A stretch of 64,000 nt of DNA from Escherichia coli (GTDB lineage Bacteria; Pseudomonadota; Gammaproteobacteria; Enterobacterales; Enterobacteriaceae), in assembly GCF_013122565.1 (NCBI RefSeq), contig NZ_CP053258.1. The stretch is one strand, 5' to 3'. A model generated the notes under the pieces. The model did not search any database and had not been told where the DNA came from. It saw only the letters and a program-made list of their open reading frames with translations. Of this stretch, positions 11,001 to 27,846 are shown piece by piece; positions within the stretch are counted from its first letter, which is position 1, and every line of letters begins with the position of its first letter. Made by a program: the position numbers and the translations under genes.

Positions 11001-11329
11001 TGGGACCCCCTTTTGATTTCTTGTTTGACACTTGCAGTTGCCAGACCGCAAGGTGTTTTAACAAATCAAAAGGGGTTTTAATAACTGGCTCAAAGCTGAA
11101 AGCTTTCCGGAACCCCCAGTCTAGCTGGGGGTTTTCTGTGCACAAGAAGAGCCCGTACGAAAGTACGGGCTTTTTTTTCGTATATTGCACACACCGGGTG
11201 CCCCCGCCCACGTCTGTTAGGGCGAGGGGAAATCGTACACATCAACTGTCTGATTGCTCAGTCAACAATCAAAATGCGCAAGAGAGTACAGAACATATAT
11301 GCGCTATCTGGTCACTTCCTGTAACTTCC

Positions 11330-12316
11330 TCACTTATTAAAATGCCCCCAACGGAAATACATGTCACATGCCATCATAAAATCGTTATGCCAGAGGAACC
11401 GACAATGGAAAAAATAGTAAATTAAGCACGGTACATAGCAGAGTAAAAAATAGGCTTCAAACCAAATCCGCCATTCCACAAGCGTTGCCAATACCGACAC
11501 CAGCGTAATCCACATCACTTCAATAACCAGCAATATGAATAACCGAAGCCAAAGCGGCTTGGCAAAAAAGGTCGACAACGCATTTTCACTGGAGAAAAAC
11601 AGATCGATTTCCTGCAAAAAAAGCCTGCCCAGAAAAGCGTACCGCTTGGAGAAGCGCAGAAAAAACAGATTAATCGCCAACACTACGCCACAAAGAATGA
11701 GCAATGCAATTATCGATTTAAACGTTAACCACTGCCCCTCTGTCACAAAAGAGTTACTGTTACGCAACGGGCTGATAGTAAGCAGGTTAACAACCGTTGA
11801 GATACACACCGAAAGCAGCACATAGCGAGTCAGACTTTTATATTTTACTTTTTTCGCTACTGAAATAGCGACCTGCTTGACATAACTGGTGCGGATCATC
11901 CGAAACAACAGAAAGATGACCAACGGCCCAAGTAACGAAATCAGGAACAGCGCATATAACGAGGGTAGAAGCTGGTATAGCCCCCAACTCATTGCACTCA
12001 ACATGATTAACGACAGAAATCCTGCCACCAGAGGTTGTGTAAGAAATAATTCTATTTTGTGGTTCTGCTTTTTCTTAAACCACGAAAAATCGATATTCTT
12101 CGTGACGCATTTATAAGCCCAGTACGCCTTGAGATCAAAAATAAAATTATACAGCACCAGGACCAGAATCCCACTAACTACACCAATATCCTCTGATGGA
12201 AAAGTAAACCCTGCATTTTTCCAATAAAAGCCTATCAGAATAAGTCCAATAGCATAAATGTATATCAGATTTCGTTTATCCTGAAAGCGAATAAAAGTTA
12301 AATAATCAGGAATCAT
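11330..12316 (-). CDS. ycdU: Polytopic inner-membrane protein, 328 aa (YcdU-like), last gene of the 17-gene array
   Basis: Hydrophobic multi-helix ORF; start overlaps stop of upstream FabD-like gene by 4 bp; size matches E. coli YcdU. Confidence 0.55.
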
Positions 12317-13257
12317 TTGAATACCTTCGCATCACTAAATGCTTTACGACAATGCATAACTCGTTGCTGATCCACGCCAGCAAAATCATTTAACATATTC
12401 CCCAAATAGGGCTTATTACTTATTTCAAGGAAAGCTACCGGGGTTGGCATATTCAGAAATGTATCGAGAGATTCAGTCCATTTCACCGTATGAGTTAAGT
12501 GTAATGAGAGATTTTCTTTGATAATTGACGGAGCGACCTCGCTTTTTGCTGTTACGTTCATCAGAACCTGATGCTCTGGCGAAGCGATATCCAGTCCGGC
12601 AAGATAATCGCGCATTGCCTGAACGCCGTCTTCCATCAAACGCGTGTGCCAGGCACCGCTCACACCGAGTTTAACCGGTTCGTACCCAGCGGCCATCAGC
12701 AGCGTGGCAAATTCATTCAACGCAGTCTGCGTTCCCCCAATAACCTGCTGGCGCGGCGTGTTATCACAGCTAATATCCAGCGCAATGCCTGATTCCGTAA
12801 TCATCGTCTGCAGTTGTTCGCGGTTGATGCCTTTAACCGCCAGCATTGCGCCTTTATTTCTCTGGCTTTCGTCATGCATCAGGCTGGCTCTGAAGTGAAT
12901 CATGCCAAATAGCGTCTCAAGAGAAATAGCTCCAGCGGCGTAGAGCGCACTGTATTCACCAACGCTGTGTCCGCAGGAGCCCACAACCGTTAAATTCTCA
13001 AGACGCTCGCGGCACAGGGTATAGAGCGTTACATTAATTGCGGTCACCGCCAGTTGTTGTACCGTCGTTTGAATAAGGCGATTCATCGGCCCTTTCTGAC
13101 ACAGGCGACGCAGGTTCAGTCCGGAAATATCGCTGGCACAATCCCAGATATGTTTTGTACTGGCGTTGAGATCCCAAAGATCGCTGCCCATACCAATAAC
13201 CGGATTACCCTGACCGGCAAAAAGCAGTACTGTCGGTTGTGAAGCATTATTCATCAT
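12313..13257 (-). CDS. Malonyl-CoA:ACP transacylase-like acyltransferase (FabD family)
   Basis: FAGQG N-terminal motif and GHSVGE active-site serine motif. Confidence 0.8.
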
Positions 13258-13267
13258 CTCTTTATCC

Positions 13268-14656
13268 TTATAGATAGTATTTAAAGCCCAAATAAAGGCC
13301 TAACGTGTCGCCAAAAAGCGCAAATTCAGAATACCGACTTCCCAGCGCGCTATAGCCACCGGCATAGGCTTCAAGCTGGTTACTGATAGCGCTGAGCGGC
13401 GTGGAATAATGCAGGCCCAGCAACGTACTGCCATCAATGAGATTGACCACCAGCGAAGGCTGCAGCGTCGACTCTCCCGCCAGCGGCAGACTGGCCCAGG
13501 CGTTCAGATAGTGCTTACCCTGCAGCATCCCCTGATTGGCGGTATTGCTGATTTCTGAAGCCATCAGGTATTTGTAAGAATCAAATGCCTGATCCAGTGG
13601 CGCATAGCCGGTTGTGGTATTGAGGAAGTCAATTAACTCGCGCTGCTGACGCTGTTCAGCGCGCGAATAACCCTCGCTCTGAAAGTAATACTCAACGCCA
13701 AACACGCTGAAATTATCACTGGTGTACTGCCCACCCAGCGCCAGCTCCACGCCGCTTTCATCTTTCGTTTCATAGAGCGAATCCGGAAACTGATATTCCT
13801 CGACCTGCGCCGTCTCACGGTGGGAAAGATGCCGCCATTGCTGGGAGCGGTGGTAGGCTGCGTCGACATTCAGCGTAAGCTGCGGGGTGTAGTGATAACT
13901 GTCAGACAGCGCGAGTGACGGCGATGGTCCGAGCCGCACATTGACTGTCGGCGTGTGCTCACCAAAGCGATGATCGCTGAAGCTCAGCAGATAGGCTTCG
14001 TCGCTGTTTCCCTGCTGATTAGCCGACCAGTTGCCAGACGTCACATAGCGTTTGTCGATGGTGGCTAACTTCGGTATGACACTCGCCGAAAACGCATAAT
14101 CGCGTGTATCCACGCTCATTTTTGCGCCCCACGATGACGCCTGATACGCCGATGTCATTTTGGGATCGTGCAAACGCGTCGACTGGAATCCAGTGTAATA
14201 ATGCGTTTGCAAATCAGAAGGCGAACGCAAAAAGAACATTCCTGACGGCGCGGCAAATTTGCCTGCTTCAAATTGAACGCTGTCCGAGGCACTATAGACC
14301 AGACTGAAGCGGTTAATTAACGCACGCGTGCGGCTATCATCCGTTTCGAATTTCCCTGCAGGTTTAAGCGCATATTCGTTTATTCCATACAGATTGAGCT
14401 TAAGGTCCAGCGTATTGTCGATTATTGAACAACCACTATTGATGCCAATCCCCGCCTCCTGATAACCGTTGTGACGTGTGTAGGGATTTTTGCCTGCAAT
14501 CTGCCAGGCCGAAGCCTGTTTATTGACATAAGACACCTGCTCGTAGAGCGTCACATCGCTGTTTTGTGCCACCTCGTCACCTGACAGGCAATCCGCCTGT
14601 ACCGTCAACGGCAGCGCAACACACAGCAACGAAGAGATCTTCAGCGTGCGTTTCAT
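13268..14656 (-). CDS. Predicted outer-membrane beta-barrel protein, 462 aa
   Basis: Signal peptide MKRTLKISSLLCVALPLTVQA; Gly/Tyr/Ser-rich alternating pattern; function unknown. Confidence 0.45.
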   Translation of the reverse strand: MKRTLKISSLLCVALPLTVQADCLSGDEVAQNSDVTLYEQVSYVNKQASAWQIAGKNPYTRHNGYQEAGIGINSGCSIIDNTLDLKLNLYGINEYALKPAGKFETDDSRTRALINRFSLVYSASDSVQFEAGKFAAPSGMFFLRSPSDLQTHYYTGFQSTRLHDPKMTSAYQASSWGAKMSVDTRDYAFSASVIPKLATIDKRYVTSGNWSANQQGNSDEAYLLSFSDHRFGEHTPTVNVRLGPSPSLALSDSYHYTPQLTLNVDAAYHRSQQWRHLSHRETAQVEEYQFPDSLYETKDESGVELALGGQYTSDNFSVFGVEYYFQSEGYSRAEQRQQRELIDFLNTTTGYAPLDQAFDSYKYLMASEISNTANQGMLQGKHYLNAWASLPLAGESTLQPSLVVNLIDGSTLLGLHYSTPLSAISNQLEAYAGGYSALGSRYSEFALFGDTLGLYLGFKYYL

Positions 14657-15441
14657 TTCGCACCTCGCTGAATATACTCTTTGGTGAAATGAAACTCTGG
14701 CAGCGATTCCAGACGAACATCGCTGTACTCCATCACTGAATAGTTATTGCCGTGACGGACATCGGTAACGGTTATTTTCATGGGTCGCGTTTTCCCCAGC
14801 ACCGGCTGGAAATCCTGATACAACACTTCTTTTATTAACTGGTCATCCTGCGAGTAATAGGCCGCCTTCCACGGGCGATTATCACCGTCTTTTTCAACGT
14901 AATAGATAACCTTCGGCCAGGTGATATCCGCCGATTTACGCACAAGCGCCAGCTTGTAACACTGCTTTTCAGCACAAGAGACTTCCCCCACAAGGGTCGA
15001 GTCATAGGCATATTCAAAGTTAGTGACAATGACATCGCCGTTAGAGATTTGCCCAATTAATCTTTGTTGCCGTGAAATAGGCATCGGACGTCGCAGTTCC
15101 GGCGTGTAAAACCATAAATCGTACCAGTCGGAAAGCATGACTTTTCCTTTATCTCGCGGCGGATAAATAAAACGCACCAGCGAGCGCGCATCCGCTTTTT
15201 CATTACCCAGCGGTTTCATAAAACGCATGGAAATATCGAGGACCTGTTTATTCTCTGGCTGGGTTACGCCCGCTTTATATTCCGTTACCGTCAGCGTGTA
15301 ACGAAACGGTTTATTCGGCGAACGAATTTCGTCAGCGCGACGAATTATATCCAGCGCCTTATTATCTGTGCTCGCCGCCTGAACGCACGACGTAGCGAGC
15401 CACAGGCAAGCAAACCACTTGCCGTAAAAAGCCATATTCAT
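14653..15441 (-). CDS. Secreted LolA-like / lipoprotein-sorting-like protein (tentative), 262 aa
   Basis: Signal peptide; size and context next to FtsX-type permease and OMP; assignment by context and recollection of similar clusters. Confidence 0.4.
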   Translation of the reverse strand: MNMAFYGKWFACLWLATSCVQAASTDNKALDIIRRADEIRSPNKPFRYTLTVTEYKAGVTQPENKQVLDISMRFMKPLGNEKADARSLVRFIYPPRDKGKVMLSDWYDLWFYTPELRRPMPISRQQRLIGQISNGDVIVTNFEYAYDSTLVGEVSCAEKQCYKLALVRKSADITWPKVIYYVEKDGDNRPWKAAYYSQDDQLIKEVLYQDFQPVLGKTRPMKITVTDVRHGNNYSVMEYSDVRLESLPEFHFTKEYIQRGAK

Positions 15442-15449
15442 AATCAGTC

Positions 15450-16760
15450 CTACGAGAATTTAAATGCGTCAGAAATATTCAGCCGGGAAGCACGTAAAGC
15501 CGGTAACACAGAGGCACCTGTTGCTGTCAAAATAGGTAATACCACCGTCACCCAAATCAATTCCGGGTTACTGGTTTTTATAAAGGCGGTATAGCCGATG
15601 GTTTGTCCCGGCGATGGCGGCATCGCAATACCATAAAGATTAATAATCCAGGCTAGCGCCCCCCCCACCAGTAGGCTACCGACTGCGCCAATCACACCAA
15701 TAAAAATGCCTTCCGTCAGAAACAAGCGCGTGACGTGAAGCGGCTTCAGGCCTATGGCACGCAGAGTGGTAATTTCACGGGTGCGTTCAGCAATGTTCAT
15801 TGCCATCGAATTGCTGATCATGAAGATGACAATCAGCGCAACAATCAGCTTGATGAAGAAATAGATCCCCGACAGTAACCCCTCAACCTGTTGATAAAAG
15901 AGTGAAACATCACGCCAGTCTTTGACCACCAGCGGCAAATGATTGCGTTCAATAAACTGACGCAGCTTAGCGCTAAACGCCGCGGTGTCATCCTCTTTTA
16001 GCAGGATAAGCACTTTGCTGACGCCATCCGTACCCATCATGCGCTGCGCGGTGTCCAGCGGGATCTTCATCGCGACATCGTCATAATCTTTAATGCCTGA
16101 CTCAAAAATGCCACGCAGTTTTAGCGACAATGCGCCCTGCCCGCCCGCCGTGTTGACGACCATCACATCCAGCCAGTCGTCATATTTCGCATTCAACGTT
16201 TTCGCCAGACCGCTGCCCAGGGTGATTTCATCACCTTTTACCCGGGAAAGATCGCTCCCCGCGATAATCTTATCGAACGAGCCCAGCTTTAAAGCGGGTA
16301 ACGGCTCCACCCCTAGCGCGGAGAAATAGCTGGAGGTTTCGCTCTCGTAATGTGAAATTACGCCAGTAAACTCCAGTTGCCCGGAGAGCGTGGAAATATC
16401 CGCCGCCAGCGTCGGGTCCGACAAAATAGCTTTCTTTAACGCCGCATAATCGGCAATCAGGCTCTTATTTTTATTCGACGTTTCAAAATAGTGCTGATTG
16501 TAAATCTGTACATGACCAATATTGGTACGAATCGTCTGCTCTTTCAGGATCCAGAAAGAGTAATCAATAAATCCGCCATATAAAAAAATTGCCACGCCAC
16601 CCAATACAATGGCGGTTATAGTAGAAAAAGAGCGACGCTTGTGGCGAAAGAGATTCAAAAATGCAAATTTGACATCTCGTGAATAAAACAGAAGCTGATA
16701 AAACACAAAAAACAGAATCAGCAGCAGAACGCAATTAACAGCTAAAATTTCCCCGGACAT
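15450..16760 (-). CDS. ABC transporter permease, FtsX/MacB/LolCE family (N-terminal TM, large periplasmic domain, C-terminal 3-TM bundle)
   Basis: Topology and C-terminal FtsX-like segment; start codon abuts stop of upstream gene. Confidence 0.65.
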   Translation of the reverse strand: MSGEILAVNCVLLLILFFVFYQLLFYSRDVKFAFLNLFRHKRRSFSTITAIVLGGVAIFLYGGFIDYSFWILKEQTIRTNIGHVQIYNQHYFETSNKNKSLIADYAALKKAILSDPTLAADISTLSGQLEFTGVISHYESETSSYFSALGVEPLPALKLGSFDKIIAGSDLSRVKGDEITLGSGLAKTLNAKYDDWLDVMVVNTAGGQGALSLKLRGIFESGIKDYDDVAMKIPLDTAQRMMGTDGVSKVLILLKEDDTAAFSAKLRQFIERNHLPLVVKDWRDVSLFYQQVEGLLSGIYFFIKLIVALIVIFMISNSMAMNIAERTREITTLRAIGLKPLHVTRLFLTEGIFIGVIGAVGSLLVGGALAWIINLYGIAMPPSPGQTIGYTAFIKTSNPELIWVTVVLPILTATGASVLPALRASRLNISDAFKFS

Positions 16761-17417
16761 TTACTCACCTTTCATCAGCGGCAGCAGTACCTGGGTTAAC
16801 TCTTCACTATCCCATTCTGGTACAACATTAAAATCATGCGTCAGCGACTGCGCTAGCGCGGTGTTTTGCCCTTTAATTTGCGCCAACAACGCATTCGCGC
16901 GGGTGGTGTCCTTGCAGTGACGTAATGCGCGATAACGCATCGCCAGAATATGGTCGCGGATCGTTGTCGTCCATATCGCCGGGTCAGCCAGCATGTGTTC
17001 GGTATCTTTGACTGTCACCACGCAACGCCCTGAATCTGCGGGTAAATAGGCATCTACGCGGGCACGTAAATACCGTACGCGTTGATTTTTCTCCTGCAAA
17101 TCCACCGCTTCATCCAGCCAGAAAAAGCCGCTTTTGGCGTATTCTGAGGCATGGATAAAATCGTTTGTTGCCGCATAACTGTCTGCCTGACGCAGTAAGC
17201 CATAGGCATAAAAAACCAGCGCCACCACATTGTGCCTGGCGTCATACTCTTTCTTTAACGCCTCGGTCAGCATCGCCAGCGCGGCAGGCTGCGCCGGGAG
17301 CCCCTGTTGCAGAACCTGGTTAACGGCGTCGGGTGTTGCCGCGTAAATCTTCGGGGCCAAAAACGCCGCGTACAAAAAGACGCCGATGAGCAAAAATCCT
17401 TTATGCATCTGAGTCAT
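16761..17417 (-). CDS. Secreted hypothetical protein, 218 aa
   Basis: Signal peptide [26 protein letters not shown]; overlaps ABC ATPase gene end. Confidence 0.4.
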   Translation of the reverse strand: MTQMHKGFLLIGVFLYAAFLAPKIYAATPDAVNQVLQQGLPAQPAALAMLTEALKKEYDARHNVVALVFYAYGLLRQADSYAATNDFIHASEYAKSGFFWLDEAVDLQEKNQRVRYLRARVDAYLPADSGRCVVTVKDTEHMLADPAIWTTTIRDHILAMRYRALRHCKDTTRANALLAQIKGQNTALAQSLTHDFNVVPEWDSEELTQVLLPLMKGE

Positions 17418-18108
17418 GAATCAATACTCCATCCTGAATTTCAACCACTCGCCGTGCCCGCGCTTTTAATTCGCTGGAGTGCGTGGAAATAACAAATGTG
17501 GTGCCTGTCTGCTGATTAATCGTCAACAGCAGGTCCAAAATAGCCTCGCCGGTTGACAGGTCTAAATTTCCCGTCGGTTCATCGGCAATGACCACCATCG
17601 GTTCGTGTGCCAGTGCCCGGGCGATGGCGACACGCTGTTGTTGACCGCCCGATAGTTGCCCAGGTTTGCGATCGCCAAAACCGCTTAATCCGACGCTATC
17701 GAGATAATGCAGCGTCCGTTCAGTGGCTTCTTTTTTACTGAACTGGCCATTAAGCACCAATGGGAAATAAACGTTATCGAAAACATTTAATACCGGCATA
17801 AGATTAAAAAACTGAAAAATAAAACCCAGATGTTTTCCACGAATCACAGCTAACTGCTCTTCCGGCAGTTGGTTCAGTAATTTATTTAAAAATATCACCG
17901 TTCCGCTGGTCGGTTTATCAATACCCGAGAGAATATTCAACAGAGTACTTTTACCACTGCCTGATGGCCCACACAGTGCGAGAAATTCGCCTTTATTGAT
18001 ATCAAGATTAATGCTTTTAAGCGCATCAACCTTTCCTGCCCCGGCACCATAACACTTGTAAATGTTGCTAAGCGAAATAGCGGGCAACGATTTAATAGTA
18101 GATTGCAT
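17401..18108 (-). CDS. ABC transporter ATP-binding protein (LolD/MacB-type), ~235 aa from ATG 18108
   Basis: Walker [10 protein letters not shown], signature [15 protein letters not shown], Walker B VVIADEPT; start chosen downstream of the 317-aa gene stop with AGGA upstream. Confidence 0.85.
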
Positions 18109-18118
18109 ACGACTGTCG

Positions 18119-19072
18119 TTATCCTTCAAGGTATTCAAGGTCAAAGTAGTGATAACCAAACTGTTTATCGGCAATGACCGTACGCATTTTTCCACCGGGC
18201 TGAATATGACGGGTTAAATAATCCATACTCAGCGCGGGCGTCAGACAACCGCTTTCTCCGTAATGGGCTACCAGGTCGATAACGCCAGCAGCAGGCCGGG
18301 ACGGCATTTGTCGCCGTTCGCTGAAGGCCATGACATCAATATCCGTAGCATGCTGTGGCGCAGTGCCGGAATGATATTCCCCGCATTGCAGCCTGATGGC
18401 GCTCTCACGCTGGCTGAGAATAAAACAACCCACGCGTTCAACAGATAAATTCACCTCATCAGCACGACGGGGGAATAAACGCTTAGGCGGTTTACCCACA
18501 TCCTCTTCAGAGAATACCAGTACCGGAATTGCCCGATAGGCAGCGCAAATCACCACGTTATCGAATACATCCCAGGCGAGATAATCCTGCGCCATACGCA
18601 GCGCCTGAACGAATGCCTGTTTTTCGCCACGAATTTTGCAAGTCGGCTCAGTTATCGAAAACTTCTTAAGTAAATTCTTGGGAAGCGTATCAATAGTGGC
18701 GATATGCAGCGCACTGGAAATTTTTTCAAACGGACCGGATTCGCCCCAGGAATCGGCATAAATAAATGCCGTGCGCGATTTCATTAACTTCATGCGTTCT
18801 TTAGTCGGCATTTGTTGTAATGCAGAATCGGTCACCTGCTCCATCGCCTCAAGGTAAGGCATATATTGCGGATTACGGATCCGTTCCGGCGCATAAATAT
18901 CGTTCTCAACGCCAAAGCGCTTCAGCCCCCAGCCATTAGCACGGGTGCCATATAATCCTCTTTCGTACATATGTGCTTCCCAGGCGTTGAGCCAGGTCGG
19001 CTGATAAAAATAAAAAATGTCGTCCGGTTCCGTAAGCGCCCAGGAAGACAGGTAGATACTCTTTTCCGTCAT
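18119..19072 (-). CDS. Hypothetical protein, 317 aa, unknown function
   Basis: ORF in operon context, 4-bp overlap with upstream KS gene; no motif recognised. Confidence 0.5.
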   Translation of the reverse strand: MTEKSIYLSSWALTEPDDIFYFYQPTWLNAWEAHMYERGLYGTRANGWGLKRFGVENDIYAPERIRNPQYMPYLEAMEQVTDSALQQMPTKERMKLMKSRTAFIYADSWGESGPFEKISSALHIATIDTLPKNLLKKFSITEPTCKIRGEKQAFVQALRMAQDYLAWDVFDNVVICAAYRAIPVLVFSEEDVGKPPKRLFPRRADEVNLSVERVGCFILSQRESAIRLQCGEYHSGTAPQHATDIDVMAFSERRQMPSRPAAGVIDLVAHYGESGCLTPALSMDYLTRHIQPGGKMRTVIADKQFGYHYFDLEYLEG

Positions 19073-20292
19073 TTCGCGCGCCCCGCTTGCATATTTGACA
19101 TAACAACGCCAATAACCGAACCATCGACACCCACACCAACCTTCAGCAAATGGCGTTTGCTATGGTTTGTCACGCTGCCGTCCGTAAGTACCAGCGAAGC
19201 CATGCTGTCGATAATGACGTCGTTACCAACAGGTGCGATCAGTTGATGATGCGTCAACGAATGGTGGCCAATGATCAGATCGACAACACCGGATCCGGTT
19301 GCGGTATAGCCGATCTGCCCTTTATAGGCGAGAACGGGGATCTGCCGCTCCCCTGCGAACATGGTGATGGCTTTGGCTTCCGCGTTATCGCTCACTGCCG
19401 AACCGTTGCCGTGTGGAAGAATGGCTGCAAGATCATCCAGCGCAATTTCAGCCTGCTTCATCGCGGCCTGCATGACCTTGTGCACGTTAGTGCTAAGCCA
19501 GGAGGCATCGTTGCTGCGGCCCGCGCTGATTTGGGTGTAAGTCGTTTGCACCCTTACGCCCTCACTTTGTTGACGCGCCCGGCGGTGATGAGCGCTTTCC
19601 AGTAGGAGCGCGCTAAAACCTTCTGCGAACGCCACACCTTTACTGTTTTCACCAAACGGCTGAACCTGTTCGCTGTCCAGCATCGATTGCGTTTCCAGGA
19701 ACCAGATATCCTGGGTTTTAATTTTCGAACAGTTCAGCACAATCGCGAGATCAATCCCGCCCTGCTCAATGCCCTGCGTCGCCAGATGCACCGCAGTCAG
19801 TGACGAGTTACTGGTGCAGTTCATGTTAGGCGGCAAATACTGCAAGCGATATTTGCGCGCAAGATGGCTTGAAATCGTGTCCTGCGACATCTTTGAGGCA
19901 TGCAGATTTGTGATGGATTGCGTTAAGTTGATATCTTCTACATCGTTGTAATTATAGAAAGATTTGTAATCCAGCCCGTCGATACGCGGCCCAATACCGG
20001 TCAGATAAACGCGAACGTTGCGCCCGGCCAGGCAATGCTTATCCAGCATTGCCTGTTCCAGGGCTTCGTCGATCAACTGAGACAGCAGGTCCAATGCGCT
20101 ATCGTCCACCTGTTTCAACGTCGCCACTGACGGATTACCCTTAAACCCGCATTTAATGGCTTCCTCGTTGGAGGTAAACCAGGGTGTACGCGCAACGCGT
20201 TTCCCCTGTTTCAGATTGTCAATTAACTGCGAACAGTCTTCGGCATACGGCATCCACACGCTGTAACCCGAAATAATAGCGGCATTGTCCAC
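19069..20292 (-). CDS. Beta-ketoacyl synthase-like protein (start uncertain; GTG 20292 proposed, longest ORF to 20358)
   Basis: Active-site-like NCTSNSS cysteine and HGNGS histidine motifs; thiolase-fold length. Confidence 0.7.
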   Translation of the reverse strand: MDNAAIISGYSVWMPYAEDCSQLIDNLKQGKRVARTPWFTSNEEAIKCGFKGNPSVATLKQVDDSALDLLSQLIDEALEQAMLDKHCLAGRNVRVYLTGIGPRIDGLDYKSFYNYNDVEDINLTQSITNLHASKMSQDTISSHLARKYRLQYLPPNMNCTSNSSLTAVHLATQGIEQGGIDLAIVLNCSKIKTQDIWFLETQSMLDSEQVQPFGENSKGVAFAEGFSALLLESAHHRRARQQSEGVRVQTTYTQISAGRSNDASWLSTNVHKVMQAAMKQAEIALDDLAAILPHGNGSAVSDNAEAKAITMFAGERQIPVLAYKGQIGYTATGSGVVDLIIGHHSLTHHQLIAPVGNDVIIDSMASLVLTDGSVTNHSKRHLLKVGVGVDGSVIGVVMSNMQAGRAK

Positions 20293-20296
20293 AGTC

Positions 20297-22855
20297 TTAT
20301 CCCTTAATGACGAACGCGTAGTAGTTGCCGCCTTCCGTTGCGCCAACAAGCAGGACATGGTTCAGCGCAAGTTTCATCGACTGGCGTACAAAATTCACAC
20401 GCTCATCAAAGAATTCCACCGTATTTGGAATCGCAGGTACTGCCTGCTTCTTAATGCAGTCAGTAATCACGGCGAGGTTAAGCAAACCAGCGGCAGAGGC
20501 GACAAAACCAAAGCAAGCGTTGTAGTTCACTACCGGCACCGCCGGGTTTTGCGCAGCGAAGGTGTTGTAAATGGCGTCAATTTCGATACGAGAATGGTCA
20601 TCGCTGCCGTTGCTGGTACCACAGACCAAATCAATATCGCCAGCAGAGATGCCCGCATGCGTAAGGGCGCGTTCAATGGCCAGCGCCATCGACGCGGATT
20701 TTTCTTCCAACAATGAGGCGTCGAAGTAGGTATTACTACATGACTTACCGTAGCCCACCACTTCCGCGAGAACCTCAGCGCCACGCGCCGCAGCCAACTG
20801 TGGATCTTCCAGCAGCAGCATGCAGGCACCCTCGCCCGGAACATAACCCTGCGGATCTTTACCGTAAATTTGATAGTCGCTCGCCTCAGCCGTCATGTGG
20901 ATCTTTTGCGTCACCGCATCCATATACAGCGACATAGACGGGAAGTACTCATCCGCGCCGCCAACCAATACCTGCGGTTGCAGGTTCTGCCGGACGATTT
21001 CATAACCGTAGGTCAGCGCGCCCAGCGCCGAGTTTTCCCCTGTCGCAAGCGTAGTGGTATACCCTTTGATCCCTTCAGAGATCCCGCAGAACGTTGGGAT
21101 CGCATTCATCAGCGAGCCAGGAAATTCCGACGTACGTACTTTGCGTGGATCGGGTTTCAGACTTTGCAGATATTTGTAGGTGGTTTCCTGCGGACCGCGG
21201 GACATCCCCATGATCATGCCCAGCTCATCGCCATCGCGTTTGATTTTACGCTTCGCCTGTTCCAGCGCTTCGGTGAGTGCGATCAGGGCAAACGTGCCGC
21301 CACGGGTCGCTTTACGCTGATCGAAACGACGCAGGTGTTTACGCGGCTCCAGCCCGGAAACCTGGAACGTTTTAAAGTTGCTTGCCGTTTCCGGAAGCGT
21401 AGCGTCGCTGAAGCTGTACTCTTCATCAAACAGCTCGGCAAACTGGTTTGATTCATCCAGCACGGCCAGCAGCTCTTTGGCTTCTTCCAGTGTATCGTCC
21501 GGGAAGGTTACGCTACCCAGTTCAACGTGGTGGTCCTGCGCCCAGATGTTTTCCAGAACCTGGTTGAGCGTGTGGCCTATTGCGGATACTGCACCGACGC
21601 CCGAGATAGCCACACGCTTCGAATCATAGGTACTGACCGGAATGGACGCGGGCTCCATGCTCAGGATCATGCAGCAATTGTTGCCGCCGAAGGCATAGTT
21701 ATTCTTCATGAAGATGTTCACTTTGCGATCGCGAAATTCATTCGGCACATAGTCCAGATCGCAATTCGGGCGTGCCTGGCTGAAATTCAGCGTCGGCAGT
21801 ACGCGGTTGTCCGGCAGTGTTGCCAGACAGGCAATCAGTTCCACAATCCCCGCTGCGCCAATGTTGTGGCCAAAGTAAGATTTGGTGGAGCTCACCAGCA
21901 GTTTATCGTGGTTAGCGAAGACCTTTTTCATTGCCAGCGTTTCGATACGGTCATTGGCTTCGGTACCCGTACCGTGCGCGTTGACGTAATCGATTTGCTC
22001 CGGGGTTACGCCCGCATTTGCCATTGCCTTGTTCATGACCTGCACCGCTCCGCTGGCACGCGGATCTGGCCCGGTTTCATGGAAAGCATCGCAGGAAGTG
22101 GCGTAAGAGAGGATCTCACCATAAATGGTCGCCCCGCGTGCTACGGCGTGCTCATACTCTTCCAGCACGATAGCGCCAGCGCCTTCACCAATCGACATAC
22201 CGGACTGACCCGAGAACGGCGTACAAGTGTCTGGATGCATGACATTCAGTGCGTAGAATCCGGCAAAGGTCGGCAGATAGATGGGCTCGGTACCTACTGC
22301 CAGCATGGTTTTGCTTTTACCATTCTGGATGTAGTCAAAGGCCATCCCCACGGCGTTCGGGCTGGCGGTACACGCGGTCGCCACCAGTTCAACCCCGCCC
22401 TGTAAGCCCAGCAGCGTTGAAACGCTGGAACAACATGATGAGAACGCGCCGGAAAAAAGTGCTTTGCGCAGCGAGAAATCTTCCATGCGCTGTTCGAACA
22501 GCGGTAAAAAGGCCTCTGTACCCGCGGAGGAAACACCGACGATCATGCCTGTTTCTTTGAGAGTGTCACGGCTATCCATCAGGCCGGCCTGACTCAGCGC
22601 ATCTTTACCCACTTTGTAGGCCCAGAGCGCTGCGTTATCCAGTGAATCGATAACATCTTCGTTCAGATCGGAGTATTCAATGTCATGCAACACTTCTGCC
22701 GCACGCGCATTTTCAAACCATTTTGCAAAGCGTTCGCTATCCTTAACGCCATTTTTTTTATTTAATAATGCTTCCCGGAAATCCTGAATATTTTCCGCCA
22801 GTGAGGACAAAATCCCCAGCCCGGTAATAACAACTCTTTTCCTGTTCGTTTTCAT
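20297..22855 (-). CDS. Fused ketosynthase / chain-length-factor-like protein (KS-CLF), 852 aa
   Basis: N-terminal half has TACTAS Cys, HGTGT and GHNIGAAG motifs; C-terminal half is KS-like but lacks the active-site Cys. Confidence 0.8.
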   Translation of the reverse strand: MKTNRKRVVITGLGILSSLAENIQDFREALLNKKNGVKDSERFAKWFENARAAEVLHDIEYSDLNEDVIDSLDNAALWAYKVGKDALSQAGLMDSRDTLKETGMIVGVSSAGTEAFLPLFEQRMEDFSLRKALFSGAFSSCCSSVSTLLGLQGGVELVATACTASPNAVGMAFDYIQNGKSKTMLAVGTEPIYLPTFAGFYALNVMHPDTCTPFSGQSGMSIGEGAGAIVLEEYEHAVARGATIYGEILSYATSCDAFHETGPDPRASGAVQVMNKAMANAGVTPEQIDYVNAHGTGTEANDRIETLAMKKVFANHDKLLVSSTKSYFGHNIGAAGIVELIACLATLPDNRVLPTLNFSQARPNCDLDYVPNEFRDRKVNIFMKNNYAFGGNNCCMILSMEPASIPVSTYDSKRVAISGVGAVSAIGHTLNQVLENIWAQDHHVELGSVTFPDDTLEEAKELLAVLDESNQFAELFDEEYSFSDATLPETASNFKTFQVSGLEPRKHLRRFDQRKATRGGTFALIALTEALEQAKRKIKRDGDELGMIMGMSRGPQETTYKYLQSLKPDPRKVRTSEFPGSLMNAIPTFCGISEGIKGYTTTLATGENSALGALTYGYEIVRQNLQPQVLVGGADEYFPSMSLYMDAVTQKIHMTAEASDYQIYGKDPQGYVPGEGACMLLLEDPQLAAARGAEVLAEVVGYGKSCSNTYFDASLLEEKSASMALAIERALTHAGISAGDIDLVCGTSNGSDDHSRIEIDAIYNTFAAQNPAVPVVNYNACFGFVASAAGLLNLAVITDCIKKQAVPAIPNTVEFFDERVNFVRQSMKLALNHVLLVGATEGGNYYAFVIKG

Positions 22856-22928
22856 GAATAATACCTGTCAATCCCGCCTATTGGGGTTAATTTAAGCCGC
22901 GTAAGCTATAGTCACGCGGCGATATTCA

Positions 22929-24089
22929 TTACGCAGCGCTTTTATTTTTTGACGCGTCGATATAACTGTGCTCAGTTGGGCTAACCAACATGCTCAGGTT
23001 ATAAATAAACGGCATACATTTTGATTGCGCCGGAATAATTCCGTGAGCAGTTTGAATTTCGTAGCCGCTGATGTCAGACCAGGCGTAATCATTATCCAGC
23101 AGAGTCAGGGCAATGAAACGCTGCAACGCTGGGGAAAAGAGTGCCTTCACGATATAGCCCACGTCTTGACCTTCCACCAGCACACGATCGCCAGCCTCAA
23201 TGCCTTCGCATTCTTCCTGAGCGATCATGCCGATGAGTTTATTACCGGTATACTCCTGGGAGAGCTCTGTCACCGCGTCCTTGCCAATAAAATCATCTTT
23301 GTCGTACTGCACCGCCCACTGCATCTGCAACTGAACCGGATTCACTGCCTGACCTTCCCAGAGGCTGGCATCCCAGCACGGATTTTCGAGGCGTACGATT
23401 TTTTGATAATCCAGGCCGCCGGTCTGCATCAGGTATTTCTCGCCGACGGTTAACAGTTTTTCCCACTGCTCCGCCAGTTTCGCCTGCTCACCGATGGTCA
23501 TGTACGCATACTCACCGTGTTTACCACAGCGGAAGATCAGCAGATCCTCCTCGGTATTCATGTATTCGTAGTAAGGCAGGCCAATAACGTCAAAGCCATG
23601 AATTTCAGACATGATCTCCCAGGAGTATGGGCCTTCGAGCAGGATTGCCCCCCAGTTGTTTTCCCGCATATCCTGAATTTCAGGCATCGATTGAATATCC
23701 AGTTCTTCCGCTTTTTCGAGAATGGTATTCATGCTGGCGATCAATTCGGCAGCCGAAATATCTTCTGAAAGCAGGTAATAACCGTCAATGCTGCACAGCA
23801 CATAGACGTCTCCGCGAATGGTGCCCTCTTCATTCAACACCAGTGAGTAGATTGCCTGCTCATCACGAATGATGGAGACATCTGCGGAAACCAGCTGGTT
23901 GATCAGCGCCCAGGCATCATCGCCCATGACGCTAACAATAGAGAGGTGAGAATAGTCCACCAGCAGCGCGTTTTCACGAACGGCTTTATATTCGGTCATA
24001 GCATCGTGATAAGAAGAAGGTAGGGTACGGTTGTTATATACCCCCATTACCGCATTATTTTTCAAGTGAAATTCAGCAAGAGATTTCAT
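22929..24089 (-). CDS. GcvT-like aminomethyltransferase-family (folate-binding) protein, 386 aa
   Basis: Overall resemblance to glycine-cleavage T family N-terminus; assignment tentative. Confidence 0.5.
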   Translation of the reverse strand: MKSLAEFHLKNNAVMGVYNNRTLPSSYHDAMTEYKAVRENALLVDYSHLSIVSVMGDDAWALINQLVSADVSIIRDEQAIYSLVLNEEGTIRGDVYVLCSIDGYYLLSEDISAAELIASMNTILEKAEELDIQSMPEIQDMRENNWGAILLEGPYSWEIMSEIHGFDVIGLPYYEYMNTEEDLLIFRCGKHGEYAYMTIGEQAKLAEQWEKLLTVGEKYLMQTGGLDYQKIVRLENPCWDASLWEGQAVNPVQLQMQWAVQYDKDDFIGKDAVTELSQEYTGNKLIGMIAQEECEGIEAGDRVLVEGQDVGYIVKALFSPALQRFIALTLLDNDYAWSDISGYEIQTAHGIIPAQSKCMPFIYNLSMLVSPTEHSYIDASKNKSAA

Positions 24090-24124
24090 AAACGTGTCCT
24101 GATAATTAATTCTTTAATAAGTAG

Positions 24125-24406
24125 TTAATCGTTGTTCTTTTGAATAACGAAGGTGGCCAGACTATTGATACTGCGCATATAGGACGGGTCGTCACTTTCG
24201 CTGATCTTGATATCAAATACTTTATCCAGCAGAACGACAATTTCCGTTGCATCGACGGAGTCCAGTTTAAAACCATTACCAAACAGCGCAGTATCATCAT
24301 CAATTTGCGCTTCATCGCGTTGAATATTCAGTCGCTGGATGATCTCAGTTTTAATGGTCATCAGAACTTCTTTACGCTGTTCAATAGCGTCATTCATGGT
24401 AGACAT
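24125..24406 (-). CDS. Acyl carrier protein
   Basis: FKLDSVDATEIVVLLD phosphopantetheine-attachment motif; small acidic protein. Confidence 0.75.
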   Translation of the reverse strand: MSTMNDAIEQRKEVLMTIKTEIIQRLNIQRDEAQIDDDTALFGNGFKLDSVDATEIVVLLDKVFDIKISESDDPSYMRSINSLATFVIQKNND

Positions 24407-24427
24407 AATATTTACTCTCTTATTGGA

Positions 24428-24976
24428 TTACTTGGTTTCACGGAAATTGATAATGGTGCCCTGACTAATCAGCTTTTTACCGACGTACGCGGTCACGGAA
24501 TAGTGTTTAAAGCCACTGGCATCCGAAAAAGCCAATTTGCTGACAACATCAATAGAATCACCCGGATAGGCGATATCTTTAAATTTCAGGTTCTGAGCAG
24601 CCAGCACGCCGCGTACCTGGCTGCGCCGGGTACGGATAATCTCCAGCATTTCAGGGCGGTGAATGCGTGCGTGAATATCACGTAACGACTTCAGCTCTTC
24701 CTCAAAACGTTCGCGCCAGATATCGCAAATGTCGGTCAGGAAAGAGAGATACTCGCTGGCCTGGCCGAAGATTTCCGAAATAATCACCCCGGGCATAATC
24801 GGATCTTCCGGGAAATGCCCCAGTAGATACGGTTCGTTATAGGTGACGTGCTTCACGACACTGACAAAGCCATTTTCACCGTATTTATAATCTGCAATTT
24901 TATCGACCATCAGCAGCGGCTGACGCCAGCCGCCCATTTCGAGGAAGATTTTCGAAGGAATCGTGTATTTGGACAT
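24428..24976 (-). CDS. FabA/FabZ-like hot-dog beta-hydroxyacyl-ACP dehydratase
   Basis: HFPEDPIMPGVIISEIFGQA matches the FabZ catalytic His region. Confidence 0.65.
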   Translation of the reverse strand: MSKYTIPSKIFLEMGGWRQPLLMVDKIADYKYGENGFVSVVKHVTYNEPYLLGHFPEDPIMPGVIISEIFGQASEYLSFLTDICDIWRERFEEELKSLRDIHARIHRPEMLEIIRTRRSQVRGVLAAQNLKFKDIAYPGDSIDVVSKLAFSDASGFKHYSVTAYVGKKLISQGTIINFRETK

Positions 24977-24979
24977 AAA

Positions 24980-25744
24980 TCACCGCATGACCAGGCCGCC
25001 ATCGATAACGATGGTCTGGCCGACAATGTAGCTGGAGGCAGAGGAACTTAAGAAGACGATGGTGTTCGCCACTTCTTCACATTTACCCAGACGGCGTAAC
25101 GGGATGGTACTGGTTACCGCACGGACCACTGCGCGGGATACTTTTTTCACCATTTTCGATTCAATCATTCCCGGTGCGACCGCGTTGACGCGCACGCCCC
25201 AGGGTGCCATTTCTGCTGCCAGCGTGCGGGTGAAGCCTAGGATCGCCCCTTTTGACGCGCTGTAATTCGCCTGACCGACGCTTGGGATCAGCGCTGCAAT
25301 AGAGGCAACGTTAATAATGGCGGGATTTTCTGCCGCACGAAGCAACATCAGCGCGTCTTTCGTCAGACGGAAAATGCTGAACATGTTGGTTTCGATAACT
25401 TGGGTGAAATCCTCATAGCTCATCGAGGCAAACAGGCTGTCTTTAACGATGCCCGCGTTATTCACCAGCACATCAATCTTGCCAGCTTCGCGCTCTATCT
25501 GTTCGCACAATGCGCTCACACTCTGGGGGCAGGCGAGATCGCACTGCACAATATGCAGTTTATCGCCTGCAGGATGGCTTGCTTTCAGCGCCGTTAATTG
25601 CACGTCGTTGGATTTATAGAGCGCATAAACATCGCAGTTCTGCTCCAGATATTTTTCACAAATACCCAGTCCAATATCACCACTGGCTCCTGTCACCAGT
25701 ACGGTTTTTTCATTTAAATCATTATATTTGTACATATTCATCAT
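24980..25744 (-). CDS. 3-oxoacyl-ACP reductase-like SDR (FabG family)
   Basis: TVLVTGASGDIG Rossmann motif, NNAG, YSASK catalytic Tyr-Lys; start set at internal Met to avoid overlap with PPTase. Confidence 0.85.
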   Translation of the reverse strand: MMNMYKYNDLNEKTVLVTGASGDIGLGICEKYLEQNCDVYALYKSNDVQLTALKASHPAGDKLHIVQCDLACPQSVSALCEQIEREAGKIDVLVNNAGIVKDSLFASMSYEDFTQVIETNMFSIFRLTKDALMLLRAAENPAIINVASIAALIPSVGQANYSASKGAILGFTRTLAAEMAPWGVRVNAVAPGMIESKMVKKVSRAVVRAVTSTIPLRRLGKCEEVANTIVFLSSSASSYIVGQTIVIDGGLVMR

Positions 25745-25754
25745 ATATGTTGAG

Positions 25755-26123
25755 TTAATAAACGATGACAGTCGCAATGGCGTGGGTACGGCAATGCGAA
25801 ATACTCAGGGAGTTATTTTGCAACCCCTGCCCGAGAAAAATTTCTTGTAGTCTTCCGGAAATAACGAAATAAGGTGCTTTGGCCGCATCATGCTTTATTT
25901 CAATATCCTGGAAACGTACGCCATCACGAAAACCACAACCAATCGCTTTAACTAACGCTTCTTTCGCCGCCCAGAATCCAGAGGCCCGTTCATAATCAGG
26001 TTCTGCAGGATTAATGAGTAAGCGCTCATGAGCAGTATAAACACGCTCATAAAAAGCCATCTCTCCATTAATAATGGCTTTGGTTATTCTGGCAATTTCA
26101 ACAATATCTGTTCCTATTCTCAT
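25755..26123 (-). CDS. AcpS-type 4'-phosphopantetheinyl transferase (holo-ACP synthase)
   Basis: [14 protein letters not shown]-terminus and [11 protein letters not shown], both AcpS-like; 15 nt after tpsB stop with AAGGA SD. Confidence 0.8.
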
Positions 26124-26138
26124 TAGTCTCGTTATCCT

Positions 26139-27758
26139 TTACATTTGGTACGAAAAATTAAAATTTATATTCACCCGATCAATATCTAATGTCGCCGGGT
26201 ACTTTAATGGGGTAGAAACGGAAAAGTTATACTCAAGACTTTTTATGTTTCCATCAATACCAACTGCCGCGCCCACCAGTGATTCATCGCCATAAGAAGC
26301 GTCCTGATACACTTGCCCAAAATCAAGACCGGCATAATAATTAGCTTTCATTCCAGGCAAAGGAAATGCCAGCGTATTTTTTATATAAAAACCATCATTC
26401 CCTGACAAACCTACGCTATTTTCAAACCCGCGAATACTCCAACGATCGCCAACTGTAATTTGATCTTGCAAAGTCAGTTCACACGGTGCGTACTGGGCAA
26501 AAAAAGCGGTATTGTAATATCCATTATCTATTTGTCGGGTATAGTTACCCTCAAAATTAAAGATATTGCTTACCGGGCTAACGTCGCCATATTGCATATT
26601 CGGCGTTTTTTCACCACCGAACCAAGTTAAAAAGCGTTGCCACGAGAGGGTTGAATCCCAGAACGCGCCGGGTAACTGTTGCTTATAATTTAGCCCCAGC
26701 TTGATATTTCCCATATCCCGCGCCTGTAATGTCAGCTCCTCACCATTAAGCGTGTAATTCGACTTTCGTCGAATGAGTTCTGCACTCCCGGCGAATTTTT
26801 TTGTTTTATCGCGATAAACGGTACGCGTCGCCTTTGCGCTCAAGTATTCGCTGGTGCCAACATAATCCAGCGAGATGTACGAAAGCGGAATCACCTGCTG
26901 CGATTTACTTTTGCTATAGAAAAAGCCGTACTCCCAGTACCCCACCGGAATGGAATAATAGCTACTGACGTTTTCGTACTGTCCAGTAGTACTACGCGTA
27001 CCGGCGAGATAAAACAGATCCCCCATTTTCGCTGGATTAAACAGATAACCCACCGCGGTTGTCTGGTAACGGCCCGTTTCTTCATCGCCCCAATTGTTGT
27101 AACTTGCCCGAACGCTCCAGTTTTTGCCCCGGTGTGTATCAATATGAACGATGCTGTAACCATCCCGTGTTCCCGGTTCAATATTAATTTTCACATCAAC
27201 GTCAGGTACTCGCTGAAGATTTTCCAGCCCCTGTTCAATATCGCGAATATTGAGAATATCGTTACGCTGAAAAGGTAACATCCATTCACTGATATCATTA
27301 CCTTCCACAATCGTTTTTTCTATCTTCCCGGCATTAACCTGGAAACGTAGCTTGCCTTTAGAAATATCCTGCGAAGGGATACTAATTCGCGTTGTGATAT
27401 ATCCGGCATTAATATAATAATCCTGCAAGGCAGCAGCAATTTTTTGCACACCAGCACTACCGACACAACGTCCGGCAATCGCTTTTTGCACTTCAGAAAT
27501 AAACTGACCATCCAGAAAGTTATCTTCCAGTTCAATCCGATTAATGATAAAGCAATTCTTTTCCTGCGGTAGATCACTCAGAGTAAACGCATTACGTTGT
27601 GCATTTGAGTAAACATCTTTTTTTTCTAATTTATGCGCGCGTAACGTGCTTTCATCTGCATTTTTTTGCTGCTTGATCAAATTATCAATACTGTCTTTCG
27701 CTGCAACCTGAAAACAACAAAGAATGAGCAGCAAACCAAAATTAAATCGTAATTGCAT
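26139..27758 (-). CDS. TpsB outer-membrane transporter (ShlB/FhaC/HecB family)
   Basis: Signal peptide, POTRA-region length, loop-6 SIRGFE (VRGY/F) motif. Confidence 0.8.
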   Translation of the reverse strand: MQLRFNFGLLLILCCFQVAAKDSIDNLIKQQKNADESTLRAHKLEKKDVYSNAQRNAFTLSDLPQEKNCFIINRIELEDNFLDGQFISEVQKAIAGRCVGSAGVQKIAAALQDYYINAGYITTRISIPSQDISKGKLRFQVNAGKIEKTIVEGNDISEWMLPFQRNDILNIRDIEQGLENLQRVPDVDVKINIEPGTRDGYSIVHIDTHRGKNWSVRASYNNWGDEETGRYQTTAVGYLFNPAKMGDLFYLAGTRSTTGQYENVSSYYSIPVGYWEYGFFYSKSKSQQVIPLSYISLDYVGTSEYLSAKATRTVYRDKTKKFAGSAELIRRKSNYTLNGEELTLQARDMGNIKLGLNYKQQLPGAFWDSTLSWQRFLTWFGGEKTPNMQYGDVSPVSNIFNFEGNYTRQIDNGYYNTAFFAQYAPCELTLQDQITVGDRWSIRGFENSVGLSGNDGFYIKNTLAFPLPGMKANYYAGLDFGQVYQDASYGDESLVGAAVGIDGNIKSLEYNFSVSTPLKYPATLDIDRVNINFNFSYQM

Positions 27759-27846
27759 TATCTTCTCAAACTAAATAAAGACAGCAGCAACCCCTGCGTG
27801 ACATGACGCATTAATATTAAATGCCACTGCTGTCTTTGGTTACATC

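Follow-up and report, generated by a model that had tools for sequence, protein, structure and literature searches.

A predicted type VII ABC transporter with a LolA-like carrier and an outer-membrane β-barrel forms a candidate lipid export module in O-island 47 of Escherichia coli

Introduction

Type VII ATP-binding cassette (ABC) systems are known to act together with a periplasmic partner on periplasmic or outer-leaflet substrates, and a recent paper counts four such systems in Escherichia coli K-12 (PMC12646458). A precedent for LolA-like export genes in lipid biosynthetic clusters is provided by the aryl-polyene proteins ApeM, ApeL and ApeN (bioRxiv 10.1101/2020.12.19.423268). In Pseudomonas, a cassette combining DUF1302 and DUF1329 proteins with a BNR protein and a resistance-nodulation-division (RND) transporter shows cofitness on fatty esters, and the export of an envelope component has been proposed for it (10.1101/2020.07.04.188060). 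How hydrophobic secondary lipids cross the periplasm to the outer membrane is largely unknown. Here we describe a compact and genetically tractable candidate for this task, contained in one operon, which we found in a 64,000-nucleotide (nt) stretch of an E. coli chromosome (contig NZ_CP053258.1 of assembly GCF_013122565.1; hereafter the window). Five minus-strand genes at positions 13268–18108 encode an ABC ATPase, a secreted protein resembling tetratricopeptide repeats (TPR), an FtsX-type permease, a LolA-like protein and an outer-membrane β-barrel. On balance, and with modest confidence, we read them as an envelope export route that is dedicated to the hydrophobic product made by the surrounding operon, which is of the type II fatty acid synthase/polyketide synthase (FAS/PKS)-like kind.

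The same gene layout is present in a near-identical annotated RefSeq copy and in the record of O157:H7 strain EDL933, and the position is that of O-island 47 (OI-47), a 31.7-kb island spanning z1528–z1556 (PMC8565820). OI-47 is one of the large islands that distinguish the O157/O145 lineage (lineage I of enterohaemorrhagic and enteropathogenic E. coli, EHEC/EPEC) from lineage II; it is conserved in O157:H7, O55:H7 and O145:H28, and thus marks their lineage (PMC3893438). Of 5426 complete E. coli genomes, 389 match the 4.8-kb module itself with an identity of 95% or higher, and in 382 of these the match covers at least 80% of the module. In RefSeq, its genes carry the names "hypothetical protein", "ABC transporter" and "outer membrane lipoprotein-sorting protein".

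Results

The ABC ATPase and the permease

The ATPase gene (17401–18108), identified by its motifs and NCBIfam matches, encodes 235 amino acids (aa) from the ATG at 18108, which is also the start used in RefSeq. Its translation shows a Walker A motif, the signature LSGGQQQR and the Walker B sequence VVIADEP. The best NCBIfam matches were LolD with 228 bits (cut-off 308), YbbA with 208, DarD with 205 and MacB with 203, followed by FtsE and DevA; all of them fell under the curated cut-offs, with E values across these six models between 1e-55 and 8e-68.

The permease (15450–16760, 436 aa) matches the Pfam families MacB_PCD at residues 44–268 (5.6e-9) and FtsX at residues 302–429 (6.7e-18). Hydropathy agrees with these assignments, placing the first transmembrane segment (TM1) at residues 44–66, followed by a periplasmic domain of ~225 aa and three further transmembrane segments. 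Among solved structures in the PDB, LolE (6e-14), LolF (9e-13) and LolC (2e-7) are the nearest, followed by MacB (3e-5), and the NCBIfam scores are far below the curated cut-offs, namely 91.5 bits for LolCE (cut-off 362), 68.6 for LolE (439) and 32.5 for LolC (473). Since the ATPase and the permease carry both features by which the superfamily is recognised, we assign the pair, from their sequences, to the type VII ABC transporters (MacB/LolCDE/FtsEX/YbbAP-type). The permease presumably acts as a homodimer, because there is a single permease gene.

Furthermore, the permease has an additional N-terminal hydrophobic helix (around residues 8–26) that precedes the FLNLFRHRRRS/TM1 stretch with which FtsX-type permeases canonically begin. 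All 40 cluster-linked loci described below have retained this helix, as have two metagenomic relatives, and the permeases of six other cassettes (see below) lack it. It could give the protein a five-segment topology or serve as a docking helix.

The LolA-like carrier

The 262-aa protein (14653–15441) matches PF17131 (LolA_like) with an E value of 3.2e-36 over model positions 2–184 of 184, and PDB entry 3BUU, deposited as "LolA superfamily protein NE2245", with 3.5e-34 over residues 29–259; the matches to 4Z48 and 9TP6 were weaker. The sequence-only reading, an earlier annotation made from the DNA letters without database searches, had staked its case on this protein having a LolA-like fold, and such a fold is indeed what the searches returned. 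PF17131 was the only Pfam family matched even at E ≤ 10, with no Pfam match to LolA or LolB; no NCBIfam LolA model was matched at E ≤ 0.01, and no NCBIfam match to LolB was obtained either. Judged by the name that the depositors gave to 3BUU, the protein can thus be assigned to the LolA superfamily, outside the LolA family proper.

Across 40 homologues, the signal peptides are of the signal-peptidase-I type without a conserved lipobox cysteine, which indicates that the protein is soluble and periplasmic. We therefore rejected the possibility that the carrier is a lipoprotein. RefSeq names it "outer membrane lipoprotein-sorting protein", and some copies carry Gene Ontology (GO) terms for lipoprotein transport; this annotation is probably misleading.

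The outer-membrane barrel

The gene after that of the carrier (13268–14656) encodes a 462-aa protein that is predicted to form an 18-strand porin/AlgE-like outer-membrane barrel, not a TolC-type duct, in line with the β-barrel outer-membrane protein that had been predicted earlier. The family has no name and no Pfam or NCBIfam model; neither a match to Pfam Alginate_exp nor an association with a polysaccharide synthase was found. A DUF1302 protein is among its structural neighbours. At the sequence level the family is very small, comprising 86 clusters in a set of 5.8 billion proteins and 55 representatives in a profile search of 1.84 billion.

The signal peptide of the barrel is cleavable at a signal-peptidase-I type site. 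The residue at −1 of a conserved cysteine is often D, E, H or N, and the barrel was accordingly rejected as a lipoprotein.

Two cysteines of the barrel, at residues 23 and 76, are near-invariant. Cys 23 lies two or three residues past the predicted signal-peptidase cut and Cys 76 near the periplasmic end of strand 2, and a disulfide between them may pin the N-terminus to the barrel rim.

The 218-aa TPR-like protein and the 317-aa protein

The gene between those of the ATPase and the permease (16761–17417) encodes a 218-aa secreted protein with an all-helical TPR/Sel1-like repeat and a cleavable signal peptide, leaving a mature form of ~190 residues. E92, D102, R118, D122, R131 and D138 are its invariant charged residues, and its family is as restricted in distribution as that of the barrel. 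The sequence-only reading did not count this protein as a component; because of its synteny, we include it as the fifth one.

The 317-aa protein (18119–19072) has no signal peptide, and no match was found in Pfam or PDB even with a profile of 26 sequences. Its gene overlaps by 4 nt that of KS2, the second ketosynthase (KS)-like protein of the operon, and travels with the ketosynthase genes. Comparison by hhalign aligned it weakly with the region around the active site of KS2 (E 1e-3, probability 19%), and the invariant residues include W48, R52-F53-G54, D107 and W109-G110-E111. We thus treat the 317-aa protein as part of the biosynthetic half rather than the exporter; it may be a very diverged partner subunit.

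Either of these two proteins might have been the periplasmic adaptor of a MacAB-type pump. Both candidates were discarded, since the 218-aa protein is a TPR-like helical repeat and the 317-aa protein has neither a signal peptide nor a Pfam or PDB homologue. In addition, no membrane-fusion protein of the HlyD/MacA family is annotated within ±20 kb of the module in the near-identical RefSeq copy. The sequence-only reading had described a module without an obvious membrane-fusion protein, and this absence held up, as did its ATPase motifs and the large periplasmic domain that it gave the permease; the four proteins that it named were found by translation and family searches where it had placed them, on the minus strand.

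Co-inheritance of the exporter and the biosynthetic genes

The ketosynthase genes border the exporter on one side and the pair fabD–ycdU on the other, with overlaps or gaps of at most 10 nt. Inside the exporter, the ATPase and 218-aa genes overlap by 17 nt, the 218-aa and permease genes abut (0 nt), the permease and LolA-like genes are separated by 8 nt, and the LolA-like and barrel genes overlap by 4 nt. No strong terminator was found inside 13268–18108.

Scanning one genome per species for synteny yielded 40 loci from three orders, comprising Enterobacterales (including Enterobacter, Kosakonia, Klebsiella, Mixta, Serratia, Erwinia and Rahnella), one Acinetobacter and several Paraburkholderia. 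The gene order was the same in all 40: the fusion of ketosynthase and chain-length factor (KS-CLF), KS2, the 317-aa gene, ATPase, 218-aa gene, permease, an optional short-chain dehydrogenase/reductase (SDR), LolA-like gene, barrel, FabD and an optional YcdU. The ATPase is 65–81% identical in the 23 closer genomes and 56–59% in the others. A second clade, with barrels 26–31% identical, keeps the same order and has one additional reductase gene, placed after the permease and before the LolA-like gene, and metagenomic relatives contain the same parts, shuffled in one case. This conservation of gene order indicates that the exporter is inherited together with the biosynthetic genes, as a single unit.

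A recurrent four-gene cassette on plasmids

A homologue search with the LolA-like protein returned close relatives from the same cluster only; the wider contexts were obtained by tblastn against plasmids, which gave 31 distant PF17131 genes (below 60% identity). We inspected eight of these contexts, and a cassette was called intact when an ABC ATPase, an FtsX permease, a PF17131 protein and a hypothetical protein of 399–480 aa followed one another in this order. Six of the eight were intact (from E. coli, Burkholderia, Paraburkholderia, Aliiroseovarius and Plesiomonas), one was decayed and one had another order.

The intact cassette on an E. coli plasmid (locus L046, NZ_CP060058.1, 13370–28008; IncK2/Z, from a healthy human) has a 399-aa barrel homologue as its fourth protein and is accompanied by genes for a KS-like protein, a PfkB kinase, a TPR-like secreted protein of 220 aa and a crotonase. 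The 220-aa protein matches the TPR profile (2.3e-6), and L046 is a second, different E. coli cluster. Among the other intact copies, that of Burkholderia gladioli adjoins a two-component regulator pair, with a fatty acyl-AMP ligase and a desaturase farther downstream; that of Aliiroseovarius is flanked by response regulators and a histidine kinase, with KS genes ~5 kb downstream; that of Paraburkholderia ginsengisoli lies beside a cytochrome P450, a phosphopantetheinyl transferase (PPTase) and a lipase; that of Burkholderia sp. FERM BP-3421 lies beside a type I PKS, an aminotransferase and an alcohol dehydrogenase; and that of Plesiomonas is accompanied by a histidine kinase and a LytTR regulator, with no biosynthetic genes. 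The decayed copy, from Haematospirillum, has a crotonase gene nearby, and the reordered one, from Ralstonia, encodes an 830-aa permease, with no neighbours noted.

The cassettes are related to OI-47 at the level of the individual proteins. Their permeases align with the OI-47 permease over the full length at 103–189 bits, as against 55 bits for LolE, and the ATPases of six cassettes are 43–47% identical to that of OI-47. Against a hidden Markov model (HMM) of the 462-aa barrel, the proteins encoded downstream scored 69.6, 47.1, 42.6, 34.9, 22.5, 21.9, 12.3, 9.8 and 6.9 bits, the last three being marginal, and the highest score among the controls, 180 shuffled sequences and 14 unrelated proteins, was 2.8 bits. 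Thus, unrelated plasmids repeatedly carry a previously undescribed four-gene cassette for an ATPase, an FtsX permease, a PF17131 protein and a barrel, in several cases beside lipid-type genes. The neighbours that we count as support are the KS genes, the acyl-AMP ligase with the desaturase, the type I PKS with the aminotransferase, and the P450 with the PPTase, all of which belong to lipid-type chemistry.

The surrounding type II FAS/PKS-like operon

The module is part of a single minus-strand run of 15 genes from acpS to ycdU, with gaps of at most 73 nt and four overlaps, which we describe as a type II FAS/PKS-like operon. A terminator-like hairpin lies past ycdU at 11150–11171. NCBIfam and the RefSeq annotation of the near-identical copy identify the upstream biosynthetic genes (19069–26123, with intergenic gaps of 3–73 nt) as acpS (25755–26123), a FabG-like reductase (24980–25741), a FabZ-like dehydratase (24428–24976), an acyl carrier protein (ACP; 24125–24406), a GcvT-like aminomethyltransferase (22929–24089), the 852-aa KS-CLF fusion (20297–22855) and the 407-aa KS2 (19069–20292). 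At the other end of the run are a FabD-type malonyl transferase (12313–13257; TIGR00128, E 4e-52) and YcdU (11330–12316), a polytopic inner-membrane protein with ~7–8 hydrophobic segments. Genes for an enoyl reductase, a thioesterase or an acyltransferase were not found among the 15, nor were genes for a polysaccharide synthase or a glycosyltransferase. The conserved operon likewise contains no lipoprotein gene, its secreted proteins being without a conserved lipobox.

The GcvT-family gene, whose product resembles folate-dependent aminomethyltransferases and demethylases, has the ACP gene on one side and that of the KS-CLF fusion on the other, and the three are conserved together.

The FabD and YcdU genes (11330–13257) overlap by 4 nt at the 3′ end of the operon, and in other genera, too, both are conserved at this end of the cluster. 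E. coli K-12 retains only ymdE and ycdU, adjoining an insertion sequence (IS) element, and ymdE is a pseudogene with acetyltransferase-like domains (PMC4951805). If ymdE is taken as a truncated copy of the FabD gene of the operon, the uncharacterised ycdU of K-12 would be the 3′ stump of the operon.

Neighbouring regions of the window

Elsewhere the window contains putA, putP, efeB and pgaABC, as well as genes for one GGDEF protein and one EAL phosphodiesterase; after these come a fimbrial operon and a two-partner secretion pair. The latter (26139–31659, minus strand) lies directly upstream of acpS and encodes a 1270-aa FhaB-like protein with a two-partner secretion (TPS) domain and a 539-aa protein that RefSeq assigns to the ShlB/FhaC family. 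As metagenomic contigs with relatives of the lipid cluster have no such pair, its position next to acpS is probably unrelated to the cluster. The EAL phosphodiesterase, the adjoining GGDEF protein and pgaABC occupy 42701–52123. PgaA is itself a TPR-plus-barrel exporter, so that two TPR/barrel export systems lie within 35 kb.

Beyond ycdU, the region 1–10300 contains an IS256-family transposase (2542–3669), two large open reading frames without family matches (3841–5367 and 5711–7561) and an integrase-domain protein (9160–10251). This region is unlike that of strain PapRG-04-4, which is otherwise near-identical. No tRNA gene was found at the island border within the window.

Discussion

A proposed export route

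The sequence-only reading took the module for a private Lol-type shuttle rather than a MacAB-TolC efflux pump. The second half of this claim is supported, since there is neither an adaptor nor a TolC duct and the permease is nearest to LolE, LolF and LolC. The first half needs a restriction: the set is Lol-like in its logic only, and its proteins fall outside the Lol families in the searches above.

We envisage the following route, in which the cargo, the direction, the order of hand-over and every contact between the proteins are those that we infer from the gene set. AcpS, ACP, FabD, KS-CLF, KS2 with the 317-aa protein, the ketoreductase, the dehydratase and the GcvT-like enzyme would build an acyl- or polyene-type lipid on the ACP of the cluster. 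The absence of enoyl reductase, thioesterase and acyltransferase genes would allow this lipid to be a polyunsaturated chain, a suggestion to which we attach low confidence. The lipid would then enter the inner membrane, possibly aided by the polytopic YcdU, and a homodimeric type VII ABC transporter of two ATPases and two permeases would extract it from the outer leaflet of that membrane, driven by an ATP-powered motion of the large periplasmic domain. From there it would be handed to the soluble PF17131 LolA-like protein, which would shield it across the periplasm. Finally, the 18-strand barrel would take the lipid and either insert it into the outer membrane or release it to the cell surface. 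The TPR-like protein would be an accessory, either a docking or scaffold factor for the transporter or the carrier, or an assembly factor for the barrel.

Several points weigh against this proposal. The hydrophobic nature of the cargo is deduced from the enzyme set of the operon, and the role given to the TPR protein is a guess. The LolA-binding hook of LolC lies in a loop whose counterpart in the OI-47 permease, by pairwise alignment with LolE and LolF, is Gly-rich and lacks ~5 of the residues, which leaves a Lol-type docking of the carrier uncertain. In some genomes, the plasmid cassettes stand beside two-component regulators rather than biosynthetic genes, and the cassette could therefore be a general handler of hydrophobic compounds instead of a product-specific exporter. 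We also found no functional study of the locus in the searchable, open-access literature, where one could be missed.

Other readings of the module

The proteins could instead form one static complex. The ABC unit and the barrel, with the TPR and LolA-like proteins standing in for the fusion protein, would then make up a continuous efflux pump across the envelope, through which a diffusible amphiphilic polyketide is expelled to the medium. The stoichiometric packing of the five genes would fit such a complex, and so would the resemblance of the barrel to secretion channels such as AlgE, as TPR-plus-barrel pairs are usual in polymer secretion. However, the locus encodes no HlyD-type membrane-fusion protein and no TolC-type duct, a mature TPR protein of ~190 residues would seem too small to span the periplasm, and the LolA-like protein is a soluble, unanchored β-fold that is typical of shuttles. 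We thus regard this arrangement as unlikely.

Quite unlikely, in our judgement, is a general role in detoxifying or handling hydrophobic compounds of exogenous origin (bile, fatty acids or host lipids, for example), with a loose link to the biosynthetic neighbours. This role would account for the histidine kinase and response regulator genes that flank the cassettes of Plesiomonas, Burkholderia gladioli and the Aliiroseovarius plasmid, and for the lack of nearby biosynthetic genes in Plesiomonas. Against it stands the embedding of the OI-47 exporter among biosynthetic genes with overlapping stop and start codons, from which it was never separated in the 40 genomes.

Some members of the type VII ABC systems do not transport and work with periplasmic protein partners (PMC7668044, PMC12646458). 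The ABC unit could thus act as a mechanotransmission regulator like FtsEX-EnvC or YbbAP-TesA, activating or positioning a TPR or LolA-like partner that modifies or processes an envelope component, and the invariant charged residues of the TPR protein could form the binding or catalytic site. Since a LolA-like fold and a dedicated barrel are parts of a carrier and a channel, not enzymes, and no hydrolase or amidase-activator domain was detected, we find this reading similarly improbable.

A paralogous lipoprotein-sorting system, moving one or a few island lipoproteins or lipidated proteins to the outer membrane, is very improbable: the RefSeq name and GO terms of the carrier and the proximity of the permease to LolE, LolF and LolC speak for it, but the conserved operon offers no candidate lipoprotein and no secreted protein with a conserved lipobox, the ATPase and permease score under the LolD and LolCE cut-offs, the carrier matches no LolA/LolB family, and the conserved partners are lipid-synthesis enzymes.

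Implications of a dedicated lipid exporter

We return to the proposal that the five genes export the product of their operon. The module adds a fifth, strain-specific type VII ABC system to the four counted in E. coli K-12, and its partners are new: a carrier from PF17131, a TPR protein and a barrel of a new family. The proposal makes a testable function available for PF17131, for which no functional study was found, and for a barrel family that lacks a Pfam or NCBIfam model. As K-12 is without all but the last two genes, it provides a clean background into which the whole operon can be transferred. That a type VII ABC machine of the envelope should have new partners is not surprising in principle, but this one is a clean, recurrent and experimentally accessible candidate.

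More tentatively, the cassette, with the TPR subunit as an option, might represent a previously unrecognised, widespread proteobacterial route that carries specialised polyketide- or fatty-acid-derived lipids, other than lipopolysaccharide (LPS) and lipoproteins, from the inner membrane to the outer membrane or the surface. This broader idea is possible rather than probable; if true, the route would stand beside the Lpt, Lol and Mla/AsmA-type systems, and the OI-47 copy would give EHEC and related E. coli a surface lipid.

Comparison with known systems

The OI-47 set shares with LolCDE-LolA-LolB a separate ATPase, a four-segment permease with a MacB-type periplasmic domain, a soluble protein of the LolA superfamily and the absence of a fusion protein, as well as a logic in which the cargo is extracted from the inner membrane and then shuttled by a soluble protein. 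It differs in that the ATPase reaches 228 of the 308 bits and the permease 91 of the 362 bits set as cut-offs for the Lol families, in having a single permease gene and a PF17131 carrier, and in the additional TPR protein and N-terminal helix of the permease. Furthermore, its outer-membrane partner is an integral barrel instead of the lipoprotein LolB, and no LolB-like gene is present in the operon. The cargo is presumably a lipid rather than a lipoprotein, because the genes are embedded in a lipid-biosynthesis operon. To the Lpt system, OI-47 is alike in outline only, without being a family member.

With MacAB-TolC and the related DevBCA-HgdD and PvdRT-OpmQ, the OI-47 system has in common the MacB_PCD and FtsX domains of the permease, an ATPase similar to the MacB domain (203 bits) and a link between export and a gene cluster. 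In contrast to these pumps, it has no MacA/HlyD-type adaptor and no TolC-type duct, its ATPase and permease are separate polypeptides, and it includes a LolA-like carrier. The exporters AlgK-AlgE, PgaA, BcsC and PelBC, which serve synthase-dependent polysaccharide secretion, combine periplasmic TPR and outer-membrane barrel parts as OI-47 does, but the OI-47 operon has no polysaccharide synthase or glycosyltransferase and does have an ABC transporter and a LolA-like carrier; its TPR protein is a small, separate polypeptide that is apparently free of lipidation, and its barrel is 10–17% identical to theirs.

The clusters for aryl polyenes, xanthomonadin and flexirubin are likewise type II FAS/PKS-like lipid clusters of Gram-negative bacteria with their own LolA-like protein, and their products are thought to reside in the outer membrane (10.1101/2020.12.19.423268). 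The aryl-polyene sets rely on the RND/MMPL transporter ApeM, the LolA-like ApeL and the LolB-like ApeN (DUF3261), whereas OI-47 uses a type VII ABC transporter and a barrel, with an added TPR protein. The biosynthetic halves also differ, since OI-47 has a GcvT-like enzyme and a fused KS-CLF and lacks acyl- and glycosyltransferases.

Maybe the nearest analogue in concept is the uncharacterised DUF1302/DUF1329 cassette of Pseudomonas, which also unites an outer-membrane barrel, a periplasmic protein and an inner-membrane transporter. DUF1329 is a member of a LolA-like clan. The OI-47 proteins have no Pfam match to DUF1302 or DUF1329, and the set relies on an ABC rather than an RND transporter and contains no BNR protein.

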